64,000 nucleotides of DNA from an uncultured Anaerolineaceae bacterium. GTDB taxonomy: Bacteria > Chloroflexota > Anaerolineae > Aggregatilineales > Phototrophicaceae. Numbering within the stretch: the stretch's first letter is position 1; each line of letters opens with the position of its first letter. The notes beneath the pieces were generated by a model that saw only the letters and a list, made by a program, of their open reading frames with translations, did no database searches and was not told the origin of the DNA. Positions 32,919 to 56,487 of the stretch are shown here, piece by piece. The translations under genes were made by a program, and so were the position numbers. The stretch is from contig CAZJWX010000004.1 of the NCBI GenBank assembly GCA_964549915.1, positions 63,181 to 127,180 of the forward strand, written 5' to 3'.

Positions 32919-33316
32919 GCGCCCAAACCCAGGACGAAGGTGCGCCGCCCGTTGAGCGCTTGCTGGATGCCATTGATTTGATCGAGGCGGGTCGCAAAGC
33001 GGAAGCCCGCCCGATCTTACGTGGTTTGATCCGCGAGAACAGCGATTTTGAAGATGCGTGGCTCTGGATGAGCGTCGCCGTTGACTCGGTGGATCAGAGC
33101 ATTGTCAGCCTCGAAAACGTCCTGCGCATCAACCCCAGCAACACCCGCGCTGCCGAAGCGCTCTATCGGCTGCGTCAGCGCGACTTACTCAGTGAACGAC
33201 GCCGCAGCCGCCTGGAATTCATCCGCGATACGGCTCGTGCGCTCTTCTGGCTGGTGGTGATGACGCTGCTCTTCGCCGTGCTGTTCACCTCGTTATTCGA
33301 AATGAGTGCCGTTTGA
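32915..33316 (+). CDS. TPR-like protein with a C-terminal TM anchor
   Basis: 133 aa with an ATGA overlap with the PIG-L gene. DFEDAWLWMSVAV...LRINPSNTRAAEALYRL, then hydrophobic tail ALFWLVVMTLLFAVLF. Confidence 0.55.
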   Translation: MSAQTQDEGAPPVERLLDAIDLIEAGRKAEARPILRGLIRENSDFEDAWLWMSVAVDSVDQSIVSLENVLRINPSNTRAAEALYRLRQRDLLSERRRSRLEFIRDTARALFWLVVMTLLFAVLFTSLFEMSAV

Positions 33317-35551
33317 AGCCTGACCTACGCCGTTTGCGCGCAAGGTGCGCACCACGTTTTCCGGCGTCAACGGAATCTTATCGAACCAGACACCTGTCGC
33401 ATCATAAAGCGCGGCGGCAATCGCACCCGCCAGCGGGATCATGGGCATCTCCGCCATACCGCGTGCCCCCCAGGGGCCTTGTGGATCGGGAACTTCCAGA
33501 ATGACCGAATCGACTTTCGCCGGAATATCCATGATTCCCGGAATCAAGTACGTGCTCAAGCGCGGATTGAGGATGAAACCATCCTTAAGCTGTAAATTCT
33601 CCGTCACGGCATACCCGTAGGCCTGGATCACACCACCTTCGATTTGGCCTTCGACCAACTGCGGATTGATGGCCTTGCCCACATCATCTGCACAGACCAC
33701 CCGCTCGACGAAGATGTGCCCGGTCTCGATATCGACGGAAAGCTCCACCGACTGCGCCACGTAGCCGTAGGTGATGTTGGCATCCCCCTTGCCCGTTTCC
33801 GGGTCAATCATCTCGGTCGCACGCGGCGTGAAACGCATCTCGCCCACTGCCGGACGGTTCTCGTTACGCCACGCTTCCAGGGCACGATCCGCCGCTCCCA
33901 GTATGGCGTTACCTGCCATAAAAGTCAGGCGGGAAGCCGAGGCCGAGCCGGAGTCCCCCGTGTAAGCCGTATCCGAGACGAACATCTCCACGCGCTCGTA
34001 GTCGACTCCCAGGGCTTCCGCCGCCATCTGCCGGAACGCTGTATGCGCCCCCTGCCCGACATCCGCACCAGAATGATAGACCACTGCACGTTCGATTTCA
34101 GCCGCGCCATGCAGTTCAATTCGAGCTTCGCAGCGCTCATCAAAGCCGAAAGAATAGCCGATATTCTTGAATCCGCAGGCCATCCCACGACCACGCCGGA
34201 TGCTGGTCGCAGAACCCGGCAGCGTCTGAAACGACTTGAAAGGCCCCGCTGCGGCCAGCGGTTCCTGCCACTGGCTGGCTTCGGCACAGGCTTCGATCAC
34301 CTGCGGCATACTGACACCAGCCGGAAGCACCGCCATCGAGAGCGCCTCACTGCCTTCGCGAAAACAGTTCTTCAGGCGAATTTCGACCGGATCCATGTTC
34401 AGCGCGGCAGCGAGCTTATTCATCTGGCTCTCTGCGACGAAGGCTCCCTGCGGCGCACCGAACCCCCGGAAAGCTCCTCCCGGAACGGTTGTCGTGTACA
34501 GCGCGTGACTATCGACGCGGGCATTGGGCACTTCGTAGGGGCCAGCAACCGTCAGATGCAAATTGCCCAGCACCTTGTTGCTGGTGTAGTTGTAAGCGCC
34601 GCCATCCAGGTAAGCATCGGCTTCCACAGCGACGATTTTGCCATCTTTCGTAGCCCCCCAGCGCGTTTCGACGATAGCACGGTGCCGCTTGTGATGCCCG
34701 ACGATGCTCTCTTCCCGCGACCACTGCGACCGAATCGGGCGCGTCTCTCCGCGTTCGTGCAATTTCCAGGCTGCAAGGGCCATCACAATCTGCATGGACA
34801 TATCTTCGCGCCCACCGAAGGCACCGCCGATAGCCGGGTAGATCACGCGAATCCTGTCGTCGGGCAAATCCAGCGCATGACCGATCTGCCACAGGTCTTC
34901 GTGCGTCCACTGCCCGGCAATCTCAATCGTCACGCGGCCTTCGGCATCCACATAGCTGACGGCGGCCTCCGGCTGTAAATAGGCGTGTTCCTGGTGCGGG
35001 ACTTCATAGCGCCCTTCGATGATGACCTCTGCGTCACGCCAACCCGCGTCCATATCCCCCTTGCGGATGACGTAATGTTTGATGGTGTTGGTTCCGTTTT
35101 CGGGATGCACCAGCACCTCATCTTCCAGGGCTGCGTAGACATCATCAACCAGGGGCAGCGGCTCCCATTCGATTTCGATGCATTCCGCCGCTCGTTGGGC
35201 AGCATCCGGCGTTTCCGCGACGACTAACGCAACCTGATCGCCTTCCCAGCGGCTGACATCCGCCGGAACTTTGCTGCGCCCCGTATCATTCAGTCCGATC
35301 ATCACGGGCTGGTCGTACATGGTCAGGCCATATTCATTGACCGGAACATCCTGCGCGGTGAAGATCGCCACCACACCCGGAATCGCTTCCGCCGCAGATA
35401 AATCCATGCTGCGCATACGGGCGTGCGGCTGACCGCTGAAGACGATTTTCGCATGTAGATAGTCCGTGCGCTGAACATCGCCGGGATAGAGCGTCTCTCC
35501 GGTCACCTTACCGGGTGCATCCACCCTGAACTTCGATTCACCGATTGTCAT
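33293..35551 (-). CDS. Xanthine dehydrogenase family molybdopterin-binding (large) subunit
   Basis: 752 aa. GGAFGGRED, FRGFGAPQGAFVAESQ and WGARGMAEMPMIP (catalytic Glu region). Confidence 0.9.
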   Translation of the reverse strand: MTIGESKFRVDAPGKVTGETLYPGDVQRTDYLHAKIVFSGQPHARMRSMDLSAAEAIPGVVAIFTAQDVPVNEYGLTMYDQPVMIGLNDTGRSKVPADVSRWEGDQVALVVAETPDAAQRAAECIEIEWEPLPLVDDVYAALEDEVLVHPENGTNTIKHYVIRKGDMDAGWRDAEVIIEGRYEVPHQEHAYLQPEAAVSYVDAEGRVTIEIAGQWTHEDLWQIGHALDLPDDRIRVIYPAIGGAFGGREDMSMQIVMALAAWKLHERGETRPIRSQWSREESIVGHHKRHRAIVETRWGATKDGKIVAVEADAYLDGGAYNYTSNKVLGNLHLTVAGPYEVPNARVDSHALYTTTVPGGAFRGFGAPQGAFVAESQMNKLAAALNMDPVEIRLKNCFREGSEALSMAVLPAGVSMPQVIEACAEASQWQEPLAAAGPFKSFQTLPGSATSIRRGRGMACGFKNIGYSFGFDERCEARIELHGAAEIERAVVYHSGADVGQGAHTAFRQMAAEALGVDYERVEMFVSDTAYTGDSGSASASRLTFMAGNAILGAADRALEAWRNENRPAVGEMRFTPRATEMIDPETGKGDANITYGYVAQSVELSVDIETGHIFVERVVCADDVGKAINPQLVEGQIEGGVIQAYGYAVTENLQLKDGFILNPRLSTYLIPGIMDIPAKVDSVILEVPDPQGPWGARGMAEMPMIPLAGAIAAALYDATGVWFDKIPLTPENVVRTLRANGVGQASNGTHFE

Positions 35552-35565
35552 CGTCGTCTACCCCA

Positions 35566-37056
35566 TCACCCCTTCTGATTCTTCTTGCTTACAGCGGCCT
35601 GATCGACAGCCGCCATGATCTTGTAGTAACCCGTGCAACGGCAGAGATTCCCGCTGAAGGCCTGCCGCACCTGCTCCGGAGACGGTGCCTCGTTCTCTTC
35701 CAGCAACTTGGCGCCGGACATCAGGAATCCGGGGATGCAGAAGCCACACTGCACAGCCCCCTGCTCGATGAAGGCTTGTTGCAGCGGGTGCAAATCTCCG
35801 TTCGCCAGCCCCTCAATGGTCACAATTTCCGCGCCGTGTGCCCGCGCCGAAGGAACCAGGCAAGACATCACCGCCATGCCATCGAGATAGACCGTACAAG
35901 CACCGCATTCGCCCTCAGCGCAGCCTTCCTTGGTGCCCGTCAATTGCCCCTGACCCAATACAGGCGATGCCTCATCGCGCAGCCAATCAAGCAGCGTTTT
36001 GTGAACACTGGCGGGAGCCGATAGTGCCCTACCATTGATTGTCGTCTGGATGGTCGCGCCGTCTTCATGCACGGCAGCGTACTCCCTGCCTGTGGGGAAT
36101 TTCCCATCTGGCACGCTGCCCCAGAGCAGCACCGGATTCTGCGGCCATTCCGCCGCCTGCTGATTCTCGCGCAGGGCAGCCAAACCACGCTGCACCATGA
36201 CGCGCACCATCTCCCGCCGATACTCCGCAGACCCGCGCAGATCATCAATCGGAGCAACAGAGTCCATCGCCAATCGAGCGGCCTCGGCGATTTCCGCCTC
36301 CGTCAGCGTCTTTCCTACCAGATATTCTTCTGCAACCGGAGAAGCCACAATCGTCGGGGCGACGCTTCCTTGCGCAATGCTGGCAGACGTCACAGTGTCG
36401 CCATCGAAGCTCAGAACCAGCGTGATATGCACCACTGAAATTGCCTGCGCCCGACGCAAACCGAGCTTCACGAAGAGACCGCGTTGATTGGCATTCATCG
36501 CCGGAAAACGGATCGCGGTCAGCATTTCGTCTGGCTCCATCACCGTGTTGCGAACGCCCGTGTAGAAGGCATCCAGCGGCACATGACGTTCCCCACGATC
36601 CGCTGAAACCAGAGTCACCGTCGCGCCCATCGCCGCCAGTGGCGAAATGGTATCGTTGGCGGGGCTGGCGGTAATCAGATTCCCGGCGATGGTGGCCCGG
36701 TTACGAAGCTGCGGCGAACCGACTTCCCAACAAGCCTGCGCCAGGGGCAGCGCCCGCTCTTGCAGCAATCGGGAAGCGACGACCTGGTTGTGCGTCACCA
36801 GCGGCCCCAGGCGAATCGTGCCATCGTCCTCCTGAGTAATTTCAGCGAGGCCGGGGATGCGCGTGACATCAATCAACACTTCTACGCCAGGCCGCCCACG
36901 TCGCTCCAGTTCGAGCAGAATATCGGTGCCGCCCGCCACAATCCGCGCCGCCGCGCCATACTGTTTGAGCAGGGCCAGCGTATCATCTACCGTTGTCGGT
37001 GTCTCATAGCGCCGGATATGCTGCCCGGCGAGTTGTACTTCATGCATGATCTTCAT
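35566..37056 (-). CDS. Fused FAD-binding (CoxM/XdhB-like, N-terminal) and [2Fe-2S] (CoxS-like, C-terminal) subunit of a molybdenum hydroxylase
   Basis: 496 aa. N-terminal AGGTDILLE and ATIAGNL. C-terminal [24 protein letters not shown] and LCRCTGY. Confidence 0.85.
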
Positions 37057-38416
37057 TCCTCACTGCTCGTCTTACATACCGTCCACGTCCAGGTGTACCA
37101 GTAAATTCGTCATTTTCGACGATGATCTCGCCCCGGCTGATGGTCACCGCCGGCCAGCCCGTGAGCTGCAACCCATCGTATAGAGTCCAATCGACGTTCT
37201 CGTGCAGTGCCTCCGACGAGAGTGTCTGCGCCTTCTGCGGGTCAAAGATCACAATGTCCGCATCGTATCCGGGTGCGATCACGCCTTTTCGGGTGAATCC
37301 CGCCAGGGCAGCCGGGCGCGTACAGCACAAATCCACCCACTGCGCGAGCGTCAGCACGCCACGACGAACGCCATCATACACCCCGGCGAGACGCATTTCG
37401 ATAGAAGGCACCCCACCCGGAATCTGACTGAAGTCGTCCAGTCCACGCGCCTTGTCGTCGCGCACGAAGGGGCAATGATCCGTTGTAACGATTTGCAGGT
37501 CGCCCCGCCGCAGCGCCTGCCAGAGGGCATCCTGCTGCGCCTGCTCACGAATCGGCGGCGCACACACGGGAAGTGCTCCCTCTACCCCCGCTTTTTCGAA
37601 TGCATCCCACGTCTTGAAGAGATACTGCGGACAGGTCTCGCCCGTGATGGGCAAAGCCCTGGCCCGCGCACGCTGGATGCGCTCCACGACTTCCTCACAA
37701 GATACATGGAAGATGTGTACGGGGGTCCCGATCAGTTCTGCCATGTCGATCACTCGTCCGGCAGCTTCGCCCTCCATGACGGCGGGACGGCTACGTGGAT
37801 GCCAGCGGGGGGAGGTATTCCCGGCGGCGAGATTCTGGGCAATCAACGTCTGAATGACATCCCAATTTTCAGCATGCACGACGGGGAGCAATCTGTGTGC
37901 ATGTGCGGCTTGTAATGCGCGGAAAAGCTGGTCATCGGTCAGGCGAAAGCCATAGGCCATATACAGCTTGACCGTGCTGATGCCTGCCTCGACGACCTGC
38001 GGCAATTCATGGAGCTTGTGGAGTTCCGGCGGGCTGATCGTCATATGCAGGCCATAATCAATGACCACCTGCGGATCAGCCTCAGCGCGGCGTTTCGCCA
38101 GCGCATCCAACATGGTTTCGTCCGGCTCTGCCGCGACGAAATCCACAATGCTGGTCGTACCGCCAAACGCCGCTGCCCGCGTCCCGCTGAAGAACGTATC
38201 GGCGGACGTGACCCCACCGGGGAGCGGCATTTGCATATGCACATGAATATCAACACCGCCGGGGATGACGTATTGTCCGACGGCATCCAATTCGCGCTGG
38301 CCTCGCAAGCCCGTTCCCAGGGCGGCGATGGTCTCGCCCTGCACCGCCACATCTGCCTGAAAAACCGCCCCGGCAGTGGCTACGATGCCATTTTTGATCA
38401 CGAGATCGTAGGACAT
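37040..38416 (-). CDS. Dihydropyrimidinase / D-hydantoinase family cyclic amidohydrolase (HyuA-like)
   Basis: 458 aa. [28 protein letters not shown] (carbamylated Lys region) and TDHCPF. Confidence 0.85.
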
Positions 38417-38420
38417 TACC

Positions 38421-39428
38421 CTAGCTGCTGTAGCCCTCGCTGAAAATGTCGATCATCAAGCGCGGATCGCCCAACGGATAGAGGATCGGGCAGGTTGCGC
38501 CATTGTCCATGTATTCGCGCACCTTGGCCTTGACCTCTTCCGGCGAGCCGCTGGCCGTACACATCTGCACCACGTCATCCGGGACGAGGTGCATGGCGTT
38601 CTCAATTTCTTCGTCGGTGGCTGGCCAGGTCAGCACCTCATGAATTTCATCCAGCAATTCCTGGCTGACACCGCTGGCCTTCATGAGGTGCGGCTGCTGC
38701 CCCAGGTACTGCGTCATCATCTTGCGTGCGCCGTCCAGCGCCTTCTTTCGATCATTATCTACCGAGCAAATCACCAACTGTGGGCGGTCAATTTCGTCAA
38801 TGCTGCGCCCGGCTTTCTTCGCGCCCTTCTCCAGCGCATCCATCGCCCGCAGGTTGTAATCCGGATGCACAAGGTAATTCAGCACGACGCCATCGGCGAT
38901 TTCACCCGTGAGTTCCATCATCTTCATGCCCGTCGCTCCAATGTAGATGGGCACATTACGCGGTGTGGTACGCCCATGTACGACATCCAACTGGATGCCA
39001 TCGACATGATGAAATTCGCCGTGATAGGTCACGTTTTCCATATTCAGCAATTTGCGCAGCACTTCCACCGTCTCGCGCATCGCTTTCAGCGGCTTTTTGC
39101 GCTCAATGCCGACTTTGGCTGCCAGCGGATCCCACCAGGCCCCAATGCCGCAGTAGATGCGGTCGGGTGCCAGGTCATCGAGCGTGAGGAAGGTCGCTGC
39201 CATCAGACCGATGTTGCGCGTCCAATTGTTGGTCACGCCGCTGCCTACTTTGATCTTGCTGGTGTGCGAAGCAAAGGCCGCCATCGGCACAATGGCATCG
39301 CGCACCAACCGGCTCTCCGCCTGCCAGACAGCTTCAAAGCCTTTTTCTTCGGCATATTTCACCAGTTCAATGCCCTCAGAAATCTCGTGGGCATCCTGCA
39401 AATAAAGTGCTACACGATCCTGTGCCAT
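38421..39428 (-). CDS. LLM class (luciferase-like) flavin/F420-dependent oxidoreductase
   Basis: 335 aa with TIM-barrel LLM pattern ([47 protein letters not shown]). Resembles Mer-like F420 enzymes. Confidence 0.8.
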
Positions 39429-39480
39429 GTTCTCAATCCCCTATTCCCGTGTAGGGGCATGATATATCATGCCCCTACTA

Positions 39481-40821
39481 TTAAAATCTTTCCCAGACGC
39501 GCCGCGCCACCTCTCGCGACTCAGCGGCGATCTTCGCTTCATCAATGCCAGCAATCACATGATCTTGCATGATGATCTTACCGTTGATGATGGTTGTGGC
39601 GACGGGTGCATCCACGATGCCGAACAGGAAATGCCCCCAGACGTTGTCACTGGTCAACGGCGTGGGTGGATCGTAATCAAGCAGGATTACATCAGCAGCA
39701 GCCCCTGCTTCAATGCGTCCCACGCGCTGCCCGGAGAGGCGCTCATAGAGGGTGGCGTTATTGCCCAGCAGCATCGTCTCAAATTCACCCCAGGCGGCGT
39801 TGTTATCCCCCAGGTGATGCTTGTGCATCAGGTAGCCAGTCATCGCCTCACGACGAATATCAGGCGTCATGCCATCCGTGCCCAGGCCAACCGTGATCCC
39901 GCGTTGCAGCATCTGGAAGACATCCGCACGCCCGACAGCGTTATTCATGTTAGATTGCGCCTGATGCACGACAATGGTGTCGCTGTTCGCCAGCAAATCA
40001 ACATCCGAATCACTGAGGAAGATACCGTGCGCAGTGATACTCTGGCTGCTGAGCAAGCCGAAGTGATGCAATCGTTCGACCACACCTCGACCGTATTTGC
40101 GCTGCGTTTCGGTCTCATCCACCTTGTCTTCCAGCATGTGAATGTGCACGCCGCGATTCACGTCCGCGCAGAGCGCCGCCGCCTGTTGCAACGATTCATC
40201 ATCAAGCGTGAAGGATGCGTGCAGCCCGACCATGCCATCGAACATGTAGTCTGGATTTGCGGCCTTGGCTTGCTGGCACTTACGGATGTAGCGCTCGTTC
40301 TCGGCGAAGCCTTTCTCACGAACTTCCGGCCCATCCCGATCAGAGACTTCGTAGCAGAGAATGCCCCGCATCCCGGTCCGTTCCAGCGCATCCTGAATGC
40401 GATCCAGGCTGCCGTCGATGGCGTTGGGGCTGGCGTGATGGTCGATGACGCTGGTTACACCCTTTTTCACTGACAGAATCGCCGGGAGCAAGGCGCTGTA
40501 ATAGACAGCATCCAGGTCAAGCACCTTGTCGAGCGCCCACCAGAGATGCAGCAAAATCTCGTAGAAGTTATTCATGGGCCTGGTCAACGCCAGCCCACGC
40601 GCATAGGTTCCATAGAAGTGCATGTGTGCGTTGATGAAGCCGGGCATGAGCAAGCGGCCTTGCCCATCGAAGGTTTCAGCATCGGGGTATTGTGCCTGGA
40701 GTTCCGCACGAGTACCAACAGCAGCAATTTTGCTGCCCTCAATGGCGACAGCCCCATCCGGGATGATGCTGCCTTCGCCCGTATTGGTGAATACGGTGAC
40801 GTTCTGAATGAGCAGAGTCAT
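39481..40821 (-). CDS. ssnA: SsnA-type aminohydrolase (chlorohydrolase/deaminase superfamily)
   Basis: MTLLIQNVT..., MPGFINAHMHFY, LWWALDKVLD, GVTSVIDHHASP, HIHMLED, SNMNNAVG, GLGTDG. Collinear with E. coli SsnA as I remember it. The ATG at 40821 is preferred to 40866. Confidence 0.8.
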   Translation of the reverse strand: MTLLIQNVTVFTNTGEGSIIPDGAVAIEGSKIAAVGTRAELQAQYPDAETFDGQGRLLMPGFINAHMHFYGTYARGLALTRPMNNFYEILLHLWWALDKVLDLDAVYYSALLPAILSVKKGVTSVIDHHASPNAIDGSLDRIQDALERTGMRGILCYEVSDRDGPEVREKGFAENERYIRKCQQAKAANPDYMFDGMVGLHASFTLDDESLQQAAALCADVNRGVHIHMLEDKVDETETQRKYGRGVVERLHHFGLLSSQSITAHGIFLSDSDVDLLANSDTIVVHQAQSNMNNAVGRADVFQMLQRGITVGLGTDGMTPDIRREAMTGYLMHKHHLGDNNAAWGEFETMLLGNNATLYERLSGQRVGRIEAGAAADVILLDYDPPTPLTSDNVWGHFLFGIVDAPVATTIINGKIIMQDHVIAGIDEAKIAAESREVARRVWERF

Positions 40822-40887
40822 AACCGTGTCCTGACAAAATGAATAATATTTGTAGGGCGCTATCATGTTGCGCCCTTTGTTTGCCTG

Positions 40888-43479: not shown

Positions 43480-43491
43480 CTCCAGAATATT

Positions 43492-43753
43492 TCAACATAA
43501 CCACTTATTTACGTCGGAAATCACTTCCACAGCGAGAGTGGGCAGGTTGGCATTGTATCCTTTATTCGCAAATGGCGTTGCTTGTGAACCACAAGAGATA
43601 AAAGCGACATCCGGTGCAAAACGCTGCCCGATTACTCGGTACTTCGATGACCCCTCCGTTGATGACCTCCACACGAGTATCGCCATACGCGCCCGCTGCA
43701 TACAAGCGATCCAAAGCCTCGGCTGTGCGTTGGATTGGCTCGCGAATAACCAT
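43492..43753 (-). pseudogene. Degenerate remnant of a Uma2 (DUF820) family endonuclease gene
   Basis: Behind the RBS GGAGGAG, the ATG at 43753 gives MVIREPIQRTAEALDRLYAAGAYGDTRVEVINGGVIEV. A second frame gives RFAPDVAFIS...LPTLAVEVISD. The two Uma2 signature blocks are joined by a frameshift and internal deletion, and the C-terminus is missing. Confidence 0.5.
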
Positions 43754-43883
43754 GGCACTCCTCCAAAATTCGTGCGGAAGTATCGCCATTATACGACAAG
43801 AACGTGTGCAGGGGCTGATCCATGACGCGCCCGTTGCAATAAATCCGCGACGGAGACGGACTGCCCCTACGTACCTCTGATCG

Positions 43884-44864: not shown

Positions 44865-44883
44865 GATTTCTGGTTCCTTCCGT

Positions 44884-46089: not shown

Positions 46090-46239
46090 AGCGTCAGTTT
46101 CTTCTCCTGCGGAAGTCGTGTAGATTCGCGGATGGTGACAGAATCCATCTCATCCACGCCATTCAAACAGATCACGCAACGCTGTCGCGCGATGGTCGCA
46201 GAATATAACACACGCGAGAACATTTCGCCTACGCGATGT

Positions 46240-47766: not shown

Positions 47767-47852
47767 AACTCGCTATCCCTCAGAAACAAAGGGGGATGCG
47801 TGGCAGGCCACCGCACATCCCACCCGTTTTCGTTTCAGTTCAGTCTGCGTAA

Positions 47853-48884
47853 TCAGCCTTCTTCAGTGGCTTCCGGTTCCGGTGCCTCTTCCTCATCTTC
47901 CGGGAAGATCACGATGTCACCCGCCACGATGCCTTCAGTCAGTTCATCGACCTGCGCTTGCAATTCCGCAATGGCTTCTTCATCACCACCCGCATAGAAT
48001 TCGCTGATCTCCATCGCCAGGCCGCCGTTTTCCAGGTCAATGGTGAACGCCTGACCACCCAGAGTGCCTTCATCCATCAGGCCGATGATCTCTTCCAGAA
48101 CGACTTCCCACTTATAAACCTGGAAGACCACACCTGACTCAGCCGCGAGTTCTTCCTGGCTGGTCTGCGTGCCGAACCAGAGCAACTCCTCGTCCAGCGC
48201 AACCGCGATCGGCCCGACCACCATCTGCGCCGTGCCCGTCAGGATGTCTGCTCCATTGGCGACATGGGTGTTGGCGGCTTCCGTTGCCAGCGGCACATCG
48301 CCGAAGGACTGGATGTAGACTACATTCACTTCCGCATCGGGGTCGGTGGCTTCCGCACCTGCGACGAAACCATCCACATAGAGCTTGGCGTCGCCCACTT
48401 CAATCGGGCCAACGACGCCGATCACGCCGCTCTCGGTCATTTCCGCCGCAATGACGCCATTGATGTAACCGCCCTCTTCTGCCGCAGCGGTGTAAGCAAA
48501 GACGTTATCCAGCCCGAAGGTATCTTCATCCGTGCCCCAGGCAAAGGAAATTTCCGGGAATTCCGGCGCGAGTTCTTCCAGAATCGAGCCATACTGCGAA
48601 CCATGCGCGATGACCAGATCGTACTCGCCCGATGATGCCCAGTCGCGCAGCGCCACTGCTGCATCATCGACGACGAACGTGCCATCCTGGAAATCGAATT
48701 GGAAGTTCTCTTCGCCGTGAGTTTCCTGCATTGCCAGCAGGGCATCATACATGCTCTGGCTGAAGGCCAGGTCGTCGGTCGCGCTGGGAGCAACCACCGC
48801 CACGCGGAAAACGTCGTCTTGCGCCAGGGTCGGCGCCAGTACCAGTGTGAACAGAACCATCAGTAGAGCAATGCGTTTGACCAT
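47853..48884 (-). CDS. BMP family (PnrA/Med-like) ABC transporter substrate-binding protein
   Basis: ATG at 48884 (RBS GGAGGA). Signal peptide, then VAVVAPSATDDLAFSQSMYDAL, AHGSQYG and an acidic C-terminal tail. Confidence 0.85.
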   Translation of the reverse strand: MVKRIALLMVLFTLVLAPTLAQDDVFRVAVVAPSATDDLAFSQSMYDALLAMQETHGEENFQFDFQDGTFVVDDAAVALRDWASSGEYDLVIAHGSQYGSILEELAPEFPEISFAWGTDEDTFGLDNVFAYTAAAEEGGYINGVIAAEMTESGVIGVVGPIEVGDAKLYVDGFVAGAEATDPDAEVNVVYIQSFGDVPLATEAANTHVANGADILTGTAQMVVGPIAVALDEELLWFGTQTSQEELAAESGVVFQVYKWEVVLEEIIGLMDEGTLGGQAFTIDLENGGLAMEISEFYAGGDEEAIAELQAQVDELTEGIVAGDIVIFPEDEEEAPEPEATEEG

Positions 48885-48977
48885 GTGCGTTCCTCCGTCG
48901 AGTCTTACATTGAATAAAGCTGCATATATGGGCAACAGGAACAAGCCGCCGCGTACTGGCTTCCCCCGCCTGTTCCC

Positions 48978-49904
48978 CTACATACCACGAGTGAATGGTT
49001 TGGTGAGCGCGGTCGGTTTCTCCCGGCTACGCGAAGTGAGCACCAACGCCAGGATCGTGATGATCGGCGGTGCCATCACGGTGAACTCCGACGGAATATC
49101 GACGCCGATGACATTAATTTGCAATTGTAGCGCGTTGACGAAGCTAAACAGCAGCGCCCCCGCCATGACGCCGTAGGGACGCCACGCGCCGAAATAGACC
49201 AGCGCCACCGCAATGAAGCCCTGCCCCGCCGTGAGGTTCTGCTGGAAGACATTCAGCAGCGCGATGGAAAGCGATGCACCTGCCAGGCCAGAGAACATGC
49301 CGCCGATGATGACACAGGCGTAACGCACCCTCGCCACGCTGACCCCCATCGCATCCGCCGCTTCGGGAGTCTGCCCGACGGCACGCACCGAAAGGCCGAA
49401 GGTGGTCTTATTCAGCACATAGGCCGAAATCGGCACCGCCAGAAAGGCTGCGTAAACCAGAATGCTGTGATCGAAGAAAATCTGCCCGATCCCCAGAAAT
49501 TCGATGTCCGACAGGATGGGAAAGTGAATTCGTGGGAAGCCATCGACCGAGCGCGGCGTACCGACCAGTTCCTGGAAGAGCAGTTCGCTCAAGCCCAGGC
49601 CGAAGAGGTAGATGCCGATGCCACTGATGCCCTGTTCTGCCTTGAGCGTCACGCTGACGAAGGCCGTCGCCAGCCCCATCAAAGCGCCGATGATGAGGGC
49701 AACCAGCACCCCCAGCAGCAGACTCCCCGTTTGCAGCACGGCATAGAATGCGCTAAACGCCCCCAGCAGCATGATGCCGTCCACACCCAGGTTGAGCACG
49801 CCGCTGCGCTGCCCGTACATTTCACCCAGGGCGGCGAAAAGGTAGGGCGTCGCCAAACGGATGGTGGTGGCGAATACACTGGCAGTAAAAATACTCTCGA
49901 TCAT
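48978..49904 (-). CDS. ABC transporter permease (BMP system)
   Basis: 308 aa, polytopic, with a 4-nt overlap with the upstream permease gene. Confidence 0.85.
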   Translation of the reverse strand: MIESIFTASVFATTIRLATPYLFAALGEMYGQRSGVLNLGVDGIMLLGAFSAFYAVLQTGSLLLGVLVALIIGALMGLATAFVSVTLKAEQGISGIGIYLFGLGLSELLFQELVGTPRSVDGFPRIHFPILSDIEFLGIGQIFFDHSILVYAAFLAVPISAYVLNKTTFGLSVRAVGQTPEAADAMGVSVARVRYACVIIGGMFSGLAGASLSIALLNVFQQNLTAGQGFIAVALVYFGAWRPYGVMAGALLFSFVNALQLQINVIGVDIPSEFTVMAPPIITILALVLTSRSREKPTALTKPFTRGM

Positions 49905-51085
49905 GACGGTTGCTCCGCCTTCTCTTTGGGTATCTCGACTCCTTCGCCCGTCGTCACGCGTGCGAGTTCGGTCAGGTTGCGCCGCTGCATCCGCCGCTGG
50001 ATGAAAAACTGGCTGCTGACGACGAAGACGACGACGATCCCGTTGATTGTGGTGATGAGCGATGCATTGACGCCGACTTCACGCTGCATATTCTGTGCGC
50101 CGACCAGCAAGCCGCCGAAGAGCGCCGATGACGGAATCGCCCCCAGCGGGTTCAAACCGCCGAAGAGCGCCGCTACGATGCCATTGAATCCGGCACTGGC
50201 CGTGAAACCCGCTGGTGAGCCGTCAGTTTGCAGGCGATATTGCAGCCCCAGAACCTGCACGACACCGGCCAGCCCTGCCATGCCCCCGGCCAGGAACATC
50301 GCCAGCACCATCTCACGTTTGACGTTCATCCCCGCGTAACGCGCGGCACGCTGGTTCAACCCAACCGCGCGAATGCGGAAGCCGATGATCGTTCGGCGCA
50401 GCAAAATGTAGATGACGATGGCCAGGACGATCGCAATCAGCAGACCCCAGTGCAACCGCGTGCGATCGAAGAGACTGCCATCGAAAAAGGGAATGGTCAG
50501 GCGCGGCAGTTGGGCGATGTCTACAATACGCGCAGTTTTGGGGATGTTGTTGAAACCCGCCGCTTCGGGGTCAAGCATGGGGCCATTCAACAGGTAATTC
50601 ATCAACTGCACCGCCACCTGATTGAGCATGATGGTGCTGAGAATCTCGTTCACATCGAAATAGGCCTTGAGGAAACCCGCGATCCCGCCGTATAAGCCGC
50701 CTGCGATGAACGCGACGACCAGCGCCAGCGGAATCACGAGCCAGCCAATCGAGTCGCCGACGCTGATGGTGACGGCTGTCCCCGCCAGCGCCCCCAGGAT
50801 CATCTGCCCCTCGCCACCGATGTTGATGACACCACCCCGGAAGGCGATGGTAATGCCAATCGCGACGAACAGAATCGGCGTGGCTTTCACGAGCGTTTCG
50901 GCAGTGGAATTCTCAGTTCCGAATGCACCCTCAACAATCGCGGCGAAGGCCACCAGCGGGTTCGCCCCCAGCGAAAGCAGCAAGAGTGCCGAGACCAGCA
51001 GCGCCGCCAGAATCGCCAGGAAGGCAGGTACCAGGTCGGAAAGGCGGTTTAATGGAGTTCGGAGGGTAGTTCGCAATGCCTGCAT
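49901..51085 (-). CDS. ABC transporter permease (BMP system); first gene of the minus-strand cluster
   Basis: 394 aa, polytopic, with GGVINIGGEGQM, typical of branched-chain/ribose-type permeases. Confidence 0.85.
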   Translation of the reverse strand: MQALRTTLRTPLNRLSDLVPAFLAILAALLVSALLLLSLGANPLVAFAAIVEGAFGTENSTAETLVKATPILFVAIGITIAFRGGVINIGGEGQMILGALAGTAVTISVGDSIGWLVIPLALVVAFIAGGLYGGIAGFLKAYFDVNEILSTIMLNQVAVQLMNYLLNGPMLDPEAAGFNNIPKTARIVDIAQLPRLTIPFFDGSLFDRTRLHWGLLIAIVLAIVIYILLRRTIIGFRIRAVGLNQRAARYAGMNVKREMVLAMFLAGGMAGLAGVVQVLGLQYRLQTDGSPAGFTASAGFNGIVAALFGGLNPLGAIPSSALFGGLLVGAQNMQREVGVNASLITTINGIVVVFVVSSQFFIQRRMQRRNLTELARVTTGEGVEIPKEKAEQPS

Positions 51086-51483
51086 TCAGGGTTTTCCATA
51101 CCACATAGCCATTGGGTAAGCAGGTGTAGCCGATACCAGGAGCAGCCGCGGGAGTCGGTCAACTTGTGAAGCAGTACATGTCGGGAGACAGCAATGCAGG
51201 TCAGGTGCCGCGACGGAACTGCACAACTCGCACGCTAGGATAACAGGCCAGCGCGTTCGACGAATTGGACAACTCTACGAGATATTCCGCCCTATCTTCA
51301 TACACTTTTAATAAGCCTGTTTTCTGCGCGTTCAAGCCGCTTCCATATAGGCGAACGCTCCACTGTCAATCAGCGTGGATTTGAGATTACCCTGATTGTT
51401 AAGAGTTGACAAATCAATGTGCTGAATGTCATGCATGTGCACTACATTGCCGCGCCGGAGTCCGCCACATGTGCAGAAACAAC

Positions 51484-51500
51484 GGATTGATATACAATCC
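51484..51500. promoter_or_regulatory. Inverted repeat enclosing a TACAAT -10-like box upstream of the carbamate kinase operon
   Basis: GGATTG-ATATA-CAATCC, with TACAAT at 51493-51498. It is 56 nt upstream of the ATG at 51556. The 8-mer CATGTGCA repeats at 51434 and 51468. Confidence 0.3.
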
Positions 51501-51555
51501 TCGCACGGGCACAGGCGCGAGGGTCTTCCTCGACCACCACTAGATTGGATGCACC

Positions 51556-52509
51556 ATGCAAGCGAGAGGCAAACTGGCCGTCATTGCCATCGGCGGCAAT
51601 TCCATCATCAAAGACCCCAAGAATCCCGGTATCGCGCGGCAGTGGGATGCCGTGCGGCAGACAACCGACCACATCGCGCATGTCATCGCAGCGGGGTATC
51701 AGGTCGTCATCACGCATGGCAACGGCCCACAGGTCGGCTATATTCTGCGGCGCGGTGAAATCGCGGCGAAACACGGTATCCACGATGTCCCCCTGGATCT
51801 GGTCGTGGCGGATACCCAGGGCAGCATCGGCTACATGCTGCAACAAGCGCTGGACAATTCCATCCGGCGCATCGGGATCAGTCGCACGGTCGTGTCCATC
51901 GTGACGCAGGTGCGTGTCAGCCCGCACGATCCGGCCTTCCAGAACCCGACAAAGCCCGTTGGCGGCTTCATGAGCGAAGAAGAAGCTCAAAAATCCGAAG
52001 CCGATGGCTGGCACGTCATGGAAGACGCGGGACGTGGATGGCGGCGCGTGGTTCCCTCCCCCAGGCCAGAGACGATCCTGGAAATCAACCCGATTCATGA
52101 TCTGATGATGGCGGGCTATATCGTCGTCGCGTCCGGGGGCGGTGGGGTACCCGTGGTGCGCAATGAGCAGGGCAGCCTGCGCGGGGTCGCAGCCGTCATC
52201 GATAAAGACCTTGCCAGCAGCCTATTGGCGGAAAAACTACGCGCAGATGTCTTCTTGATCTCGACGGGTGTGCCGCAGGTCTACCTCCACTTCAACACGC
52301 CACAGCAGCGCGCGCTGGATTCGATCACGCTGCAAGAAGCCCAGCAGTACATTGACGAAGGTCACTTTGCGACGGGGAGCATGCTGCCGAAGATGCAGGC
52401 GGCGGTGCAGTTCATCCGCAATGGTGGCCCACGCGCGATTATCACCGATCCGGAACATTTGCTGAAGGCCATTCAAGGCGAGGCCGGAACGCACATTCTG
52501 CCGGGATGA
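51556..52509 (+). CDS. arcC: Carbamate kinase
   Basis: 317 aa. LAVIAIGGNSI, ITHGNGPQVG and ASGGGGVPV. Confidence 0.9.
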   Translation: MQARGKLAVIAIGGNSIIKDPKNPGIARQWDAVRQTTDHIAHVIAAGYQVVITHGNGPQVGYILRRGEIAAKHGIHDVPLDLVVADTQGSIGYMLQQALDNSIRRIGISRTVVSIVTQVRVSPHDPAFQNPTKPVGGFMSEEEAQKSEADGWHVMEDAGRGWRRVVPSPRPETILEINPIHDLMMAGYIVVASGGGGVPVVRNEQGSLRGVAAVIDKDLASSLLAEKLRADVFLISTGVPQVYLHFNTPQQRALDSITLQEAQQYIDEGHFATGSMLPKMQAAVQFIRNGGPRAIITDPEHLLKAIQGEAGTHILPG

Positions 52510-52537
52510 TCGCAGCAACACGTAAGGAAAGCAACAG

Positions 52538-53788
52538 ATGGTACCGATCAAGACTTTGCGCGATACCGTGACCGGGGCGGATTTCGCCCCGGATGGAATC
52601 GCCTATTTCAACCCGGATGTGGGACAGGTTGCCACGCTGGATGTGCTCTACGATTACGAAACGCTTCGTGCAACCGTTGACCGCGATAAGCTCAGTGCCT
52701 CACGGGAGACGACGCTCTGGCGCTACGGGGATTTGCTGCCGATTGCACCGGACACGCAGGTTCCGCCGCTGGCTGTCGGCTGGACGCCGCTGTATCCCGC
52801 GCCGCGCCTGCGCGAATCCCTGGGCTTGCGCCAGGCCTGGGTCAAGGATGATGGTGCCAACCCCACTGGCTCACTGAAAGACCGCGCCAGCACGATGGTC
52901 GTCGCTCGTGCGCTGGAAATGGGCGTAAAAGTCGTCAGCACTGCCAGCACGGGCAACGCTGCTGCGGCACTGGCTGGCGTGGGTGCATCGGTGAACTATG
53001 CCGACATGGACATCATCATCTTCGTTCCCGCCACAGCCCCGGAAGCCAAGATCGCGCAGCTCCTGGTCTATGGCGCGACGGTGCTGCTGGTCGAAGATAC
53101 CTATGATACCGCCTTCGACCTCTGTTATGAGATGTGCGTCGCCGAGAACTGGTACTGCCGCAACACCGGAATCAACCCCTTCACGACCGAGGGCAAGAAA
53201 ACTGCCGCCTATGAAATCGCCGAGCAGTTGAACTGGGAAGCTCCCGACGCCGTTGTGGTCAGCGTGGGTGATGGCAGCATCATCGGCGGCGTGTACAAAG
53301 GCTTCTGGGACCTGCACCAACTGGGCTGGATCAATCGCATGCCGCGGCTGATCGGCGTGCAGGCCAGCGGGAGTTCGCCCCTGGTGAAAGCCTGGGAAAA
53401 TGGCGTGGACGCAGTCGATATGCAGCGGGAGGAGGTACAGACGATTGCAGATAGCATCTCCGCCGGGTTGCCCCGCGACCGCGTGAAGGCGCTACGTGCC
53501 GTGCGCGAAACGGGCGGTGCCTTCGTCGCTGTACCGGATGAAGAGATCATCGCGGCGATTCCCCAGTTCGCCCGCCTCACTGGTGTCTTCGCTGAACCAA
53601 GCTGTGCGGTAACCTACCCTGGCGCAAAACGCGCTTTAGAAGCAGGCTATTTGAAGCCCGACGATCGCGTAGTCTTCCTGAGCACGGGCAATGGCCTGAA
53701 AGATGTACGCCGTGCGCAGGAATCCGTCTCGGGGGGACTGCGAGTCGCCCCCAGCATGGACGCCATTCGCGCAGCTTTGAACCTGTAG
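52538..53788 (+). CDS. Threonine synthase family (fold-type II) PLP-dependent enzyme
   Basis: 416 aa. DDGANPTGSLKDRAS (PLP Lys), STASTGNAAAALA and VSVGDGSIIGG. Confidence 0.8.
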   Translation: MVPIKTLRDTVTGADFAPDGIAYFNPDVGQVATLDVLYDYETLRATVDRDKLSASRETTLWRYGDLLPIAPDTQVPPLAVGWTPLYPAPRLRESLGLRQAWVKDDGANPTGSLKDRASTMVVARALEMGVKVVSTASTGNAAAALAGVGASVNYADMDIIIFVPATAPEAKIAQLLVYGATVLLVEDTYDTAFDLCYEMCVAENWYCRNTGINPFTTEGKKTAAYEIAEQLNWEAPDAVVVSVGDGSIIGGVYKGFWDLHQLGWINRMPRLIGVQASGSSPLVKAWENGVDAVDMQREEVQTIADSISAGLPRDRVKALRAVRETGGAFVAVPDEEIIAAIPQFARLTGVFAEPSCAVTYPGAKRALEAGYLKPDDRVVFLSTGNGLKDVRRAQESVSGGLRVAPSMDAIRAALNL

Positions 53789-53815
53789 AGAATCATCAAT
53801 CGTAGGAGCAAGACC

Positions 53816-55207
53816 GTGATTACTGGCCCGACATTTGAAGAGATGCTGCATCCAGAAAAGATTGCCCCGGAAATCCGGGCACGTGCGCTGGCTGCGCTGA
53901 AAGATGACCCACTCGATCCCATCAACCTGTTCAACATCACCTGGCGCGATGCCGACAACAACATTCATTACGTGGTGCTCCCCCCCGAACTGACAGGAGT
54001 CAAAGCCCCGATTGTGGTCATGTACGGCAGGGAGTTCCCTTCCGGCAGCCACAAGGTCGGCCCTGCCTACTCGATTCTGCTGGAAAAGGAACTCTTCGGC
54101 GAAGTCGATCCGGCAGTGCACCGCCTGGTATGGCCTTCCACCGGGAATTACGGCATCGGCGGTGCCTGGGTCGGCGGACGCATGGGCTGCAACAGCCTGG
54201 TCGTGCTGCCGGAGGAAATGAGCCAGGAGCGCTTTGATCGCATCGAGAGCTACGGCGCACAGGTCATCAAAACCATCGGCTCCGAAAGCAACGTCAAGGA
54301 AATCTACGACGAAACCTGGCGCTTGCGGCAAGACCCCAACACCCGCGTCCTGAATCAGTTCGAGGAAATGGGCAACTACCGCTTCCATTACCATGTCACG
54401 GGCAATACCGCTGTCGAACTCATGGCGGAATTGCAGGAAAAAGGCATCGGCAACGGTAAAACGGCGGCCTTCGTCTGGGCGATGGGCAGCGCGGGCACGA
54501 TTGCCGCCGGGGATCGCCTGAAGCAAGTCTTCCCGGATTGCAAGATCGTCGGCCTGGAACCCGTGCAGTGCCCCACAATGTTCAGCAACGGTTACGGCGC
54601 ACACGAGATTCAGGGCATCGGCGACAAGCACGTCACCTGGATCCACAACACCTTCAACATGGATGCACTGATGTGCATTGACGACATGGACTGCCTGAAG
54701 GGGTTGCAATTGCTCTCCGAACCCATCGGGCGCGAGACACTGGTCAGGCGCTATGGTGCAGATGAAGAACTGGTTGAAAAACTCGGTGATCTCTTCGGCA
54801 TCAGCAGCATTTGTCACATCCTCGGCTCAATCAAGACTGCCAAAGAATTTGACTTCGGCGAAGATGATGTAATCCTCACCGCCGCCGCCGACAGCCTGGA
54901 TCGTTACTATTCCGTGATGGATTGGATGCGAGCACAATATGGCGCACTGGACGAGGCCGCCGCTGTTGGGCGCATTGAAGGGGTGTTTTACGGCGCGAAG
55001 ACCGATTACGTCCAGCATGCGACCCCCAACAATCACCAGCGCTGGCACAATCTCAAGTACTACACCTGGGTGGAACAACAGGGCAAAACCATCGCCGAAC
55101 TGGACGCCCAACGCGACCCGGCATGGTGGGAAGCGCACCAGCAGCGCGTCGCTGAAATCGACGAACGCCTGCTGGAAGAGCGCAAAAAAGCCACACAAAA
55201 AGCCTGA
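53816..55207 (+). CDS. Fold-type II PLP-dependent enzyme (cysteine synthase / Trp synthase beta superfamily); subfamily not identified
   Basis: 463 aa with a GTG start behind AGGAG. FPSGSHKVGPAYS (candidate PLP Lys), STGNYGIGGAW and MGSAGTIAAG. Carries a long C-terminal extension. Confidence 0.7.
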   Translation: MITGPTFEEMLHPEKIAPEIRARALAALKDDPLDPINLFNITWRDADNNIHYVVLPPELTGVKAPIVVMYGREFPSGSHKVGPAYSILLEKELFGEVDPAVHRLVWPSTGNYGIGGAWVGGRMGCNSLVVLPEEMSQERFDRIESYGAQVIKTIGSESNVKEIYDETWRLRQDPNTRVLNQFEEMGNYRFHYHVTGNTAVELMAELQEKGIGNGKTAAFVWAMGSAGTIAAGDRLKQVFPDCKIVGLEPVQCPTMFSNGYGAHEIQGIGDKHVTWIHNTFNMDALMCIDDMDCLKGLQLLSEPIGRETLVRRYGADEELVEKLGDLFGISSICHILGSIKTAKEFDFGEDDVILTAAADSLDRYYSVMDWMRAQYGALDEAAAVGRIEGVFYGAKTDYVQHATPNNHQRWHNLKYYTWVEQQGKTIAELDAQRDPAWWEAHQQRVAEIDERLLEERKKATQKA

Positions 55208-56372: not shown

Positions 56373-56487
56373 GAGGTTTCCCTTCGCAAAAGAGTCAATC
56401 TTGCGGCCAGTATACCAACGTGTGCGGTTCGCGTTGACACCGGCTCGGTCTCATGCTACGCTCATTGCCAGGAAATTGTATAACTAA

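Follow-up and report, generated by a model that had tools for sequence, protein, structure and literature searches.

A Chloroflexota gene island with a putative F420-type variant of the reductive urate pathway

Introduction

Here, we have analyzed a 64-kb stretch of DNA (the window), part of a 133,979-bp source contig from an uncultured Anaerolineaceae bacterium. We suggest that the gene island at 33293-55207 probably encodes a Chloroflexota form of the reductive pathway by which urate and purines are degraded via 2,8-dioxopurine ('yanthine'), in which a luciferase-like (LLM) oxidoreductase would serve as the substitute for the reductase YgfK. That this is a purine/urate island of the SsnA/YgeY/HyuA/carbamate kinase type in a Chloroflexi-like background was proposed in a first-pass annotation of the sequence. 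The family scores bear out the island type, and the closest relatives of several cluster proteins come nearly all from Chloroflexota metagenome-assembled genomes (MAGs).

The first-pass annotation described the pathway as genetically tied to urate and purine degradation. The tie is correct, but the state of knowledge has moved on, as the enzymes were worked out in 2025 (PMC12507026; bioRxiv 10.1101/2025.04.24.650524). Urate is converted to 2,8-dioxopurine (yanthine) by XdhD-YgfM in E. coli or by XdhAC (DOPDH) in C. sporogenes, and dearomatisation is carried out by YgfK (DOPOR) or the PydA-like UacX. SsnA and HyuA open the two rings to give 2,3-diureidopropionate, from which YgeW (or UacY) and YgeY strip the ureido groups; YqeA yields ATP and YgeX yields pyruvate (PMC12507026; bioRxiv 10.1101/2025.04.24.650524). 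YgfK and SsnA act as a coupled pair, and SsnA was the marker used by Li et al. (PMC12507026). The same authors pointed out that SsnA neighbourhoods of Chloroflexota are without YgfK or UacX and contain a PF00296 protein that is putatively F420-dependent (PMC12507026, Fig. 3c and Discussion). Our full-text literature search found no other paper with both F420 and SsnA.

Results

Architecture of the island

Family calls were judged against curated NCBIfam cut-offs, and identities to E. coli refer to the K-12 proteins. The minus strand from 33293 to 51085 carries 12 open reading frames (ORFs) of at least 100 amino acids, and a divergent unit of three ORFs occupies 51556-55207, as had been claimed. 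The genes are as follows.

49901-51085, minus: ABC permease, first gene of the run (NF047929, BMP-type ABC permease 2, 189 bits, below cut-off)
48978-49904, minus: ABC permease (NF047928, 180 bits, below cut-off; 4-bp overlap with the upstream gene)
47853-48944, minus: BMP/PnrA-like substrate-binding protein (Pfam PF02608 Bmp, 122 bits)
46240-47766, minus: double-domain ABC ATPase (NF047930, 501 bits, below cut-off)
44884-46089, minus: YgeY-family M20 hydrolase (TIGR03526, 467 bits vs 321; 41% to E. coli YgeY)
43884-44864, minus: short YgeW-type carbamoyltransferase, 326 aa (by alignment and motifs; below the YgeW and ornithine carbamoyltransferase cut-offs)
40888-43473 (ORF to 43479), minus: fused 2Fe-2S and molybdenum (Mo) hydroxylase without FAD (TIGR03311, 939.9 bits vs 830.45, residues 6-849)
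39481-40821 (ORF to 40866), minus: SsnA amidohydrolase (NF005540, 548 bits vs 444; TIGR03314, 541 vs 455.5)
38421-39428, minus: LLM oxidoreductase, 335 aa (PF00296)
37040-38416, minus: HyuA-type D-hydantoinase/dihydropyrimidinase (TIGR02033, 475 bits vs 393; 38% to E. coli HyuA)
35566-37056, minus: fused FAD and 2Fe-2S subunit of a second hydroxylase, 496 aa (FAD_binding_5, CO_deh_flav_C, Fer2_2; xdhA-like, 313 bits, below cut-off)
33293-35551, minus: Mo subunit of the second hydroxylase, 752 aa (pucD-like, 506 bits, below cut-off)
51556-52509, plus: carbamate kinase, YqeA/ArcC (TIGR00746, 383 bits vs 358; 45% to E. coli YqeA)
52538-53788, plus: threonine-synthase-like (ThrC-like) fold-type II pyridoxal phosphate (PLP) enzyme (PF00291, 261 bits; TIGR00260, 210 vs 167)
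53816-55207, plus: divergent CysK/CBS-like PLP enzyme, 463 aa (PF00291)

Thirteen minus-strand genes had been counted in the first-pass annotation. The coordinates of all its listed ORFs are correct, but the count is not, and its thirteenth 'gene' may be a 75-aa ORF inside the larger of two intergenic gaps. This gap was given as about 404 bp (43480-43883) and is indeed present, measuring 410 bp (43474-43883) when the ATG at 43473 is taken as the start of the gene below it; the 150-bp gap at 46090-46239 was also found. The remaining minus-strand spacings run from a 17-bp overlap up to 86 bp, and the divergent intergenic region measures 470 bp. All the components that had been described as embedded in the cluster are present: the LLM oxidoreductase (PF00296), a second complete FAD/FeS/Mo hydroxylase with FAD and 2Fe-2S domains fused in one ORF, two other PLP enzymes (both PF00291) and a BMP-family ABC importer (by NCBIfam and Pfam).

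Several canonical partners had been reported as missing from the window, namely YgfK, YgeX, YqeB/YqeC and YgeV, and our searches lead to the same conclusion. In tblastn searches of the whole 64 kb with the E. coli proteins, YgfK, YgeV, YqeB, YqeC and MocA gave no match, YgeX and YgfM gave only weak similarity, and Pfam scans of the flanks agree. Nor is there a PF01180 protein (PydA-like UacX) among the cluster ORFs; the LLM oxidoreductase sits beside SsnA instead.

The SsnA, YgeY, HyuA and carbamate kinase homologues all score above their curated cut-offs, so that the first-pass calls are upheld. SsnA is 37% identical to its E. coli counterpart, and its 446-aa start at 40821 agrees with a public gene call. 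By analogy with the known enzymes, SsnA would open the ring of reduced 2,8-dioxopurine, HyuA would convert ureidomethylhydantoin or 5-ureidodihydrouracil to 2,3-diureidopropionate, and carbamate kinase would gain ATP from carbamoyl phosphate. YgeY of E. coli takes the 3-ureido group off albizziin to give 2,3-diaminopropionate (PMC12507026).

The LLM oxidoreductase and its F420 context

The best NCBIfam matches of the LLM protein are nearly all F420-dependent LLM families, and the eight PDB entries that match it at E <= 1e-10 all belong to F420-using proteins (Mer and FGD). Such F420-dependent LLM enzymes transfer hydride directly from F420H2 to their substrate. To place the protein in context, we scanned a collection with one genome per species, found at least 515 relatives, and took gene neighbourhoods from the best 80. 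The related loci carry L-numbers, and 38 of them are 'full', with at least 8 kb on each side of the LLM gene. These best 80 relatives are 72-92% identical to the LLM of the window and belong nearly all to Chloroflexota, with hosts among Ardenticatenaceae, Promineifilaceae, Caldilineaceae, Phototrophicaceae and other Anaerolineae.

Genes of F420 metabolism recur in these neighbourhoods. CofC and CofD are encoded no more than 3.5 kb from the LLM gene in 34 of the 80 loci, CofE is found in 13, an FbiB-C-like nitroreductase in 17, and an NADPH:F420 reductase (npdG, 220 bits vs 150) in 18; cofE and fno recur within 10 kb. Among the 38 full loci, 32 have a Mo enzyme of the xanthine dehydrogenase (XDH) family within 10 kb and 26 have cof or fno genes; at least one of the two classes is present in 37. 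None of the 80 neighbourhoods contains YgfK.

The gene order is also conserved among related genomes, a point that the first-pass annotation had left to be checked. The LLM gene adjoins SsnA in the window and in three further loci (L021, L041 and L084). The closest contig, L084 from a JGI metagenome, reads GntR / YgeY, carbamoyltransferase, FeS-Mo enzyme, SsnA, LLM, FAD/FeS subunit, Mo subunit at 73-92% identity, which is the gene order of the window without HyuA. Leptofilum (L007) has the FeS-Mo enzyme, LLM and a true YgeX (49% to E. coli), in that order. In Phototrophicaceae the order begins with carbamoyltransferase, carbamate kinase, ThrC-like enzyme, GT2, CysK-like enzyme, an unknown gene, SsnA, Fno and CofE, and continues with nitroreductase, CofD, CofC, LLM, metallophosphoesterase, FAD/FeS subunit, DUF6909, Mo subunit and a YqeC-MocA fusion. 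Thus in Phototrophicaceae and related MAGs (L057, L058, L062-L064, L068-L071, L074, L076) cofC/D/E, the nitroreductase and NADPH:F420 reductase stand between SsnA and LLM, at about 6-12 kb of the locus, which suggests that F420 supply is co-organised with the purine-degradation pathway.

The clade is an isolated one. A search of 1.84 billion cluster representatives gave only 340 at E <= 1e-30 to the LLM protein, and the next full-length relatives are 40-53% identical. A 53% relative adjoins CofC; a 47% relative adjoins an amidohydrolase whose identity to SsnA is just 26%, as low as that seen for the 8-oxoguanine-deaminase family in other loci.

Judged by gene context, F420 dependence of the LLM enzyme and a role beside a Mo hydroxylase are well supported. 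We infer that the enzyme is an F420H2-dependent 2,8-dioxopurine reductase that acts in place of YgfK or UacX, which would explain why YgfK is missing.

Two further observations concern the related loci. In five loci of Leptofilum/Promineifilaceae (L002, L007, L009, L012, L015), the FeS-Mo enzyme and LLM are followed by a pair of genes for a 260-aa unannotated protein and a 170-aa Ras-family GTPase (PF00071, 147 bits); a Ras-family small GTPase is an unusual neighbour for a catabolic cluster. The LLM homologues are named 5,10-methylenetetrahydromethanopterin reductase by JGI, apparently a systematic misannotation.

Could the LLM, HyuA and YgeY homologues form a reductive pyrimidine pathway beside the purine genes? 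They would then act as an F420-dependent analogue of dihydropyrimidine dehydrogenase, a dihydropyrimidinase and a ureidopropionase-like hydrolase. The protein at 37040-38416 does pass the dihydropyrimidinase/D-hydantoinase equivalog model, and BMP-type importers accept nucleosides generally. However, HyuA is found near LLM in only three of the 80 loci, whereas Mo hydroxylases and SsnA recur, 44884-46089 passes the model specific for YgeY, and E. coli HyuA, a member of the same hydantoinase family, is proven in the urate pathway (PMC12507026). On this score and neighbour evidence we rejected the pyrimidine reading, which we regard as highly improbable.

Two molybdenum hydroxylases

The protein at 40888-43473 had been called XdhD-like with FeS and Mo domains. 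The FeS-Mo composition is correct, but 'XdhD-like' is imprecise, as the enzyme is of the clostridial/enterococcal type described by TIGR03311 and shares no more than 26% identity with E. coli XdhD. Its Pfam domains are Fer2_2, Ald_Xan_dh_C, MoCoBD_1 and MoCoBD_2, and its Mo domain starts at residue 309; in DOPDH of C. sporogenes, the Mo domains span residues 307-839 (bioRxiv 10.1101/2025.04.24.650524). An identical 861-aa public gene call begins at the ATG at 43473. At the positions of bovine F1009 and A1078 the enzyme has Asn and Thr; the published DOPDH signature is F1009V and A1078T/S.

The second hydroxylase, at 33293-37056, has the complete set of FAD/2Fe-2S and Mo domains and falls below all equivalog cut-offs. 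Its 752-aa Mo subunit contains the motifs GGAFGGRE and AFRGFGAPQ and the catalytic Glu, retains Phe at F1009, and has Ser at A1078. Orthologues of this subunit (33293-35551), 52-75% identical, adjoin LLM in many loci.

We argue that 40888-43473 is the probable urate 6-dehydroxylase (DOPDH), which converts urate to 2,8-dioxopurine. It is favoured for this step because of its TIGR03311 membership, its FAD-less layout and its position directly upstream of SsnA-LLM, and because it combines a non-aromatic residue at F1009 with Thr at A1078, whereas the 752-aa subunit keeps Phe. The enzyme at 33293-37056 probably forms urate from xanthine or hypoxanthine.

In four loci (L003, L008, L014 and L024, at about 5.3-9.9 kb in locus coordinates) an additional, third hydroxylase stands beside the TIGR03311-type enzyme. 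It consists of an XdhD-like 986-aa FeS-Mo protein (38% to XdhD) and a YgfM-like FAD subunit, and adjoins XdhC, LLM and HyuA. Both known types of DOPDH can therefore share one cluster.

The selenium question

The first-pass annotation considered the pathway possibly selenium-independent, for which we find no support. The FeS-Mo enzyme passes the model of selenium-dependent XDH, its homologues in Chloroflexota bear the NCBI name 'selenium-dependent xanthine dehydrogenase', and the clusters of relatives carry genes for YqeC and YqeB-like proteins. YqeC (TIGR03172, 129 bits vs 73), fused to a MocA-like domain, occurs in 12 loci, and YqeB-like genes, 46-47% identical to E. coli YqeB, in three; YqeC, YqeB-like and XdhC genes lie 5-10 kb from LLM. 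Moreover, both Mo enzymes have their best per-domain PDB match in the selenium-dependent nicotinate dehydrogenase of E. barkeri, which in the case of the FeS-Mo enzyme accords with where DOPDH was placed in published work. The selenium-cofactor maturation genes of the present genome presumably lie elsewhere in it.

These distances bear on another possibility, that the island is a standard selenium-dependent cluster whose ygfK, ygeX, yqeB, yqeC, selD and regulator lie just beyond the window. The window covers less than half of the source contig, and the spacing of the selenium genes in relatives would fit such a layout. Nevertheless, unrelated genes bound the cluster on both sides and no YgfK was found in the 80 related loci, so that a standard cluster is very unlikely. 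That partners lie outside the window is likely true for the selenium genes, not for ygfK.

A protein of a different kind also recurs around the Mo enzymes. In about ten loci (e.g. L062:13146-14900), a 584-aa DUF6909 protein (PF21850, 716 bits; no NCBIfam family) is encoded between the genes of the FAD/FeS and Mo subunits, and in these loci the YqeC-MocA fusion comes after the Mo subunit gene. Possibly, DUF6909 is a so far overlooked factor in the maturation of selenium-dependent Mo hydroxylases, or an accessory protein of these enzymes.

A short YgeW-type carbamoyltransferase

The call of 43884-44864 as YgeW holds as far as motifs are concerned, but the protein is neither a member of the YgeW equivalog nor of full length. 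It has 326 residues compared with 396 in E. coli YgeW (the models have about 390), and scores 199 and 189 bits against the YgeW models NF005538 and TIGR03316, whose cut-offs are 453 and 500. Against two ornithine carbamoyltransferase (OTCase) models it scores 271 bits vs 306 and 260 vs 281, again below both. Its identity to E. coli YgeW is 34-38%, compared with 29% for ArgI and 25% for PyrB.

These scores raise the question of whether the carbamoyltransferase and carbamate kinase are simply the catabolic OTCase/ArcC pair of an arginine deiminase route, placed here by chance. The best HMM and PDB scores of the protein are indeed those of OTCases, and its public homologues are named ornithine carbamoyltransferase by NCBI or N-acetylornithine carbamoyltransferase (AOTCase) by JGI. 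However, even its best OTCase score misses the cut-off, and its identity to YgeW (38%) exceeds that to ArgI (29%). The alignment shows the STRTR, HPxQ and HCLP motifs and no DxxxSMG or SMG ornithine motif or GDxxNNV-type stretch; in their place are the YgeW-specific 'AYxxSYxKPxSVPQ', 'KSW' and a 'DWGQEGNKY'-type insertion. Three internal insertions of YgeW and its C-terminal tail are missing. Moreover, the window has no arginine deiminase gene, and related loci retain the synteny with the genes of YgeY, the FeS-Mo enzyme and SsnA. We therefore rejected the arginine deiminase reading on motif, score, synteny and neighbour evidence, and give it hardly any credence.

Since the YgeW-specific motifs are present and the ornithine motifs of OTCases are absent, we assign 43884-44864 as a short YgeW-type enzyme, which would work like YgeW and yet stand outside the curated YgeW equivalog. 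Its proposed reaction, by analogy, is phosphorolysis of the 2-ureido group to give carbamoyl phosphate. The OTCase and AOTCase names of its homologues are probably wrong.

The PLP enzyme pair

The ThrC-like and CysK-like genes follow carbamate kinase in the divergent unit. The nearest PDB entries of the ThrC-like protein are threonine synthases. The CysK-like family is 73-86% conserved across Chloroflexota and is annotated only generically. Compared with E. coli YgeX, the CysK-like protein is 31% identical over 126 aa and the other PLP enzyme 23% over 128 aa. The pair occurs with carbamoyltransferase, carbamate kinase and SsnA in 12 of the 38 full loci, in several families. In the cultured Ardenticatena maritima (LGKN01000006.1) the pair lies downstream of carbamoyltransferase-carbamate kinase, with identities to the window of 83% for carbamoyltransferase, 62% for carbamate kinase, 58% for the ThrC-like and 45% for the CysK-like protein.

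With low confidence, we suggest that the two PLP enzymes replace YgeX. Albizziin and 2,3-diaminopropionate are beta-substituted alanines, so that formation of aminoacrylate by a CysK-type enzyme would be chemically natural. Structure comparison gave no sign that the CysK-like protein itself is a YgeX-like lyase. With a target TM-score of about 0.8, beta-cyanoalanine synthase, CysK and CBS, not diaminopropionate ammonia-lyase, are the best Foldseek matches of its AlphaFold 2 (AF2) model (pLDDT 84, pTM 0.88).

The ABC importer

The minus-strand run begins with the four genes of the BMP-type importer. In related loci, orthologues of its first permease (49901-51085) adjoin the gene of the FeS-Mo enzyme. 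The importer is of BMP/PnrA-like type, and its substrate is likely to be a purine nucleoside or base.

Observations that weigh against the proposed pathway

Several observations weigh against the reading of the island as an F420-type urate pathway. The LLM protein passes the cut-off of no curated family, and the substrate and cofactor proposed for it come from homology and context. Within 10 kb of LLM, SsnA is found in only 15 of the 38 full loci and HyuA in one, and the LLM gene has a tighter link with Mo hydroxylases and cof genes than with SsnA. Searches of the window by tblastn with the relatives' CofC/D/E, Fno, XdhC, YqeC and DUF6909 gave no match, and tblastn and Pfam scans found no YqeB, YqeC or SelD within the 64 kb. 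The F420 biosynthesis genes and the regulator presumably lie elsewhere in the genome.

The assignment of the two Mo enzymes is likewise open to objection. The FeS-Mo enzyme has Asn at F1009, not the Val reported for DOPDH. The GGxFGG(K/R)E, (F/M)RGFG..Q and catalytic-Glu motifs (of the Glu802/Arg880/Glu1261 type) are found in both enzymes, and the F1009 position is the only one that separates them among active-site residues. The best per-domain PDB match of both is the selenium-dependent nicotinate dehydrogenase of E. barkeri, and the only Mo enzyme within 10 kb in the Phototrophicaceae clusters is of the FAD-containing type. As for the last step, the score of the ThrC-like protein lies above the cut-off of the generic thrC model, so that a plain threonine synthase is conceivable, and the modelled structure of the CysK-like protein is closer to enzymes of beta-replacement than to diaminopropionate ammonia-lyase.

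Some of these points would fit a purine/urate island in which the LLM enzyme is not the 2,8-dioxopurine reductase and the real ring reductase is encoded outside the window. The substrate of LLM could then be some other intermediate or a different product of a Mo hydroxylase, or the enzyme could, like FGD, serve to regenerate F420H2. Consistent with this, LLM stands more often beside cofC/cofD (34/80) and Mo hydroxylases (32/38) than beside SsnA (15/38), no curated family claims it, and the contig extends well past the window's 64 kb to 133,979 bp. On the other hand, none of the 80 related loci contains YgfK, and the Chloroflexota SsnA neighbourhoods have neither YgfK nor UacX (PMC12507026). 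LLM adjoins SsnA in the window, L021, L041 and L084, in keeping with the known coupling of YgfK and SsnA, and a second F420-reducing enzyme would be redundant in relatives whose clusters already hold an NADPH:F420 reductase. We therefore consider it unlikely that the reductase is a different enzyme encoded elsewhere, and retain LLM as the candidate for this step.

Gaps, boundaries and flanking genes

The 410-bp gap (43474-43883) contains two short minus-strand ORFs in different frames with Uma2/DUF820-like motifs ('EVINGGVIEV' and 'PTLAVEVIS'). The sole Pfam match is below threshold (E = 0.066), and we rejected the gap as a Uma2-family endonuclease pseudogene; at best, it is possibly a decayed insertion remnant with a frameshifted Uma2-type gene. 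A scan of 32500-56500 with Rfam at E <= 1 gave no match, riboswitches for purines, xanthine or guanidine included. In 43300-52000, promoter- and terminator-like sites are no commoner than in shuffled sequences. A perfect palindrome, GGATTGATATACAATCC, lies at 51484-51500, 56 bp upstream of the carbamate kinase start. It may be an operator, but such a match is no more than is expected by chance, as 22 of 100 shuffles also give one. Apart from a 10-nt pair, the divergent region has no further inverted repeat.

The flanking genes are as follows.

Left flank (Pfam scans): GcvP, Mur-ligase/alanine-racemase fusion, TGT, Znu-type ABC system, QueG, MFS transporter, glutamate dehydrogenase, UvrA, MarR, ABC-2 exporter, DUF3048 protein, MshB-like deacetylase
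Right flank: SDR, FecCD-type ABC system, Cas6, RAMP protein

Because these genes are unrelated, we place the bounds of the island at about 33.3 kb and 55.2 kb.

Some of the flanking genes deserve mention in their own right. At 3606-6161 on the minus strand, an 851-aa ORF encodes, in one chain, the middle domain of a Mur ligase (residues about 117-297) and an entire alanine racemase (493-850) and appears to be a bifunctional cell-wall enzyme. The queuosine-pathway genes for TGT and QueG, at 6235-7428 and 16155-17297, are unrelated to the island. At 60999-62832, a gene for a Cas6 endoribonuclease (PF10040) comes immediately before one of the RAMP superfamily (PF03787); the two resemble the beginning of a type III-like CRISPR-Cas locus that leaves the window. 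Tandem Repeats Finder detected no repeat array in 55000-64000.

Discussion

How the genes of the island could work together is suggested by the enzymes of the known pathway. The BMP-type importer would take up a purine or nucleoside, and the hydroxylase at 33293-37056 would oxidise hypoxanthine or xanthine to urate. Judging by its family and architecture, the FeS-Mo enzyme at 40888-43473 would take the 6-oxo group off urate to give 2,8-dioxopurine. In the key step, the LLM enzyme (38421-39428) is expected to transfer hydride from F420H2 to 2,8-dioxopurine, the job done by YgfK in E. coli and by UacX in C. difficile. SsnA would then open the reduced ring, and HyuA the second ring to give 2,3-diureidopropionate. 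The short YgeW-type enzyme could release carbamoyl phosphate, from which carbamate kinase would make ATP, and YgeY would take off the remaining ureido group. Least certain is the last step, in which the ThrC-like enzyme, the CysK-like enzyme or both may replace YgeX and convert 2,3-diaminopropionate or albizziin via aminoacrylate.

Two novel elements are combined in this scheme, a new F420H2:2,8-dioxopurine oxidoreductase that is non-homologous to YgfK and UacX, and a new end-game in which the PLP pair acts by beta-elimination or beta-replacement. That both hold together is a tentative proposal, to which we would give somewhat less than even odds.

If the pathway is as proposed, coenzyme F420 would have a central catabolic role in Chloroflexota, and in several families it would be as if F420 were made largely for the purine pathway. 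If the role of LLM is right, the enzyme would be a third non-homologous solution to dearomatisation, the first two being YgfK, which works with NADPH and FMN, and UacX, which is linked to ferredoxin. It would also give a physiological substrate to a widespread and highly conserved LLM family of Chloroflexota (at least 515 relatives in the one-genome-per-species collection), define an F420 catabolism in a phylum abundant in activated sludge, sediments and soils, and enlarge the enzyme toolbox for urate-lowering probiotics. The scheme would further correct a systematic misannotation, that of the carbamoyltransferase as OTCase or AOTCase and of LLM as methylene-H4MPT reductase. A cultured relative that bears at least part of the cluster exists in Ardenticatena maritima.

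Comparison with known systems

Among solved structures, the closest relatives of the LLM enzyme are Mer (8qq8, 150 bits) and FGD, which belong to the same TIM-barrel LLM family. The LLM enzyme differs from them in that it falls below every curated Mer and LLM cut-off, has no methanogenesis context, and is encoded among purine-catabolic neighbours.

The E. coli cluster, ygeW-ygeX-ygeY-hyuA-yqeA ... ygfK-ssnA-ygfM-xdhD, shares with the island SsnA, HyuA, YgeY, YqeA, a YgeW-type enzyme and a Mo hydroxylase, as well as the chemical logic, including the gain of ATP via carbamoyl phosphate. In contrast to E. coli, the window is without YgfK, YgfM, YgeX, YgeV, YqeB, YqeC and MocA. It has a TIGR03311-type Mo enzyme rather than XdhD, LLM in place of YgfK, the ThrC-like and CysK-like enzymes in place of YgeX, and an ABC importer where E. 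coli has NCS2 permeases.

Similarly, the pathway of C. sporogenes and C. difficile (XdhAC as DOPDH, CLOSPO_02131 in C. sporogenes; YgfK as DOPOR, or UacX; UacY) has a FAD-less fused FeS-Mo enzyme of about 850 aa whose Mo domain starts at about residue 307-309, and a separate XDH supplies urate. This likeness is one of architecture; for XdhAC, Liu et al. derived an identity cut-off of 46% from phenotypes (bioRxiv 10.1101/2025.04.24.650524). The reductase of the window is neither YgfK nor UacX, its proposed carrier is F420 as opposed to NADPH or ferredoxin, and the host is an environmental member of Chloroflexota.

The nearest system is that of the published Chloroflexota neighbourhoods, in which SsnA likewise lies beside LLM and YgfK and UacX are absent (PMC12507026). 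The first-pass annotation regarded the island as the best candidate for a new system in the window. It is divergent and uncharacterised, but its novelty was overstated, as the exchange of YgfK for LLM, the central idea, had already appeared in 2025 as a bioinformatic remark (PMC12507026). That report is a neighbourhood-network observation and is without the embedded cofC/D/E-fno genes, the short type of YgeW, the PLP pair and the YqeC-MocA fusion. Taken together, the cluster is best filed as an uncharacterised, putative F420-type variant of the reductive urate (2,8-dioxopurine) pathway with non-orthologous replacements.

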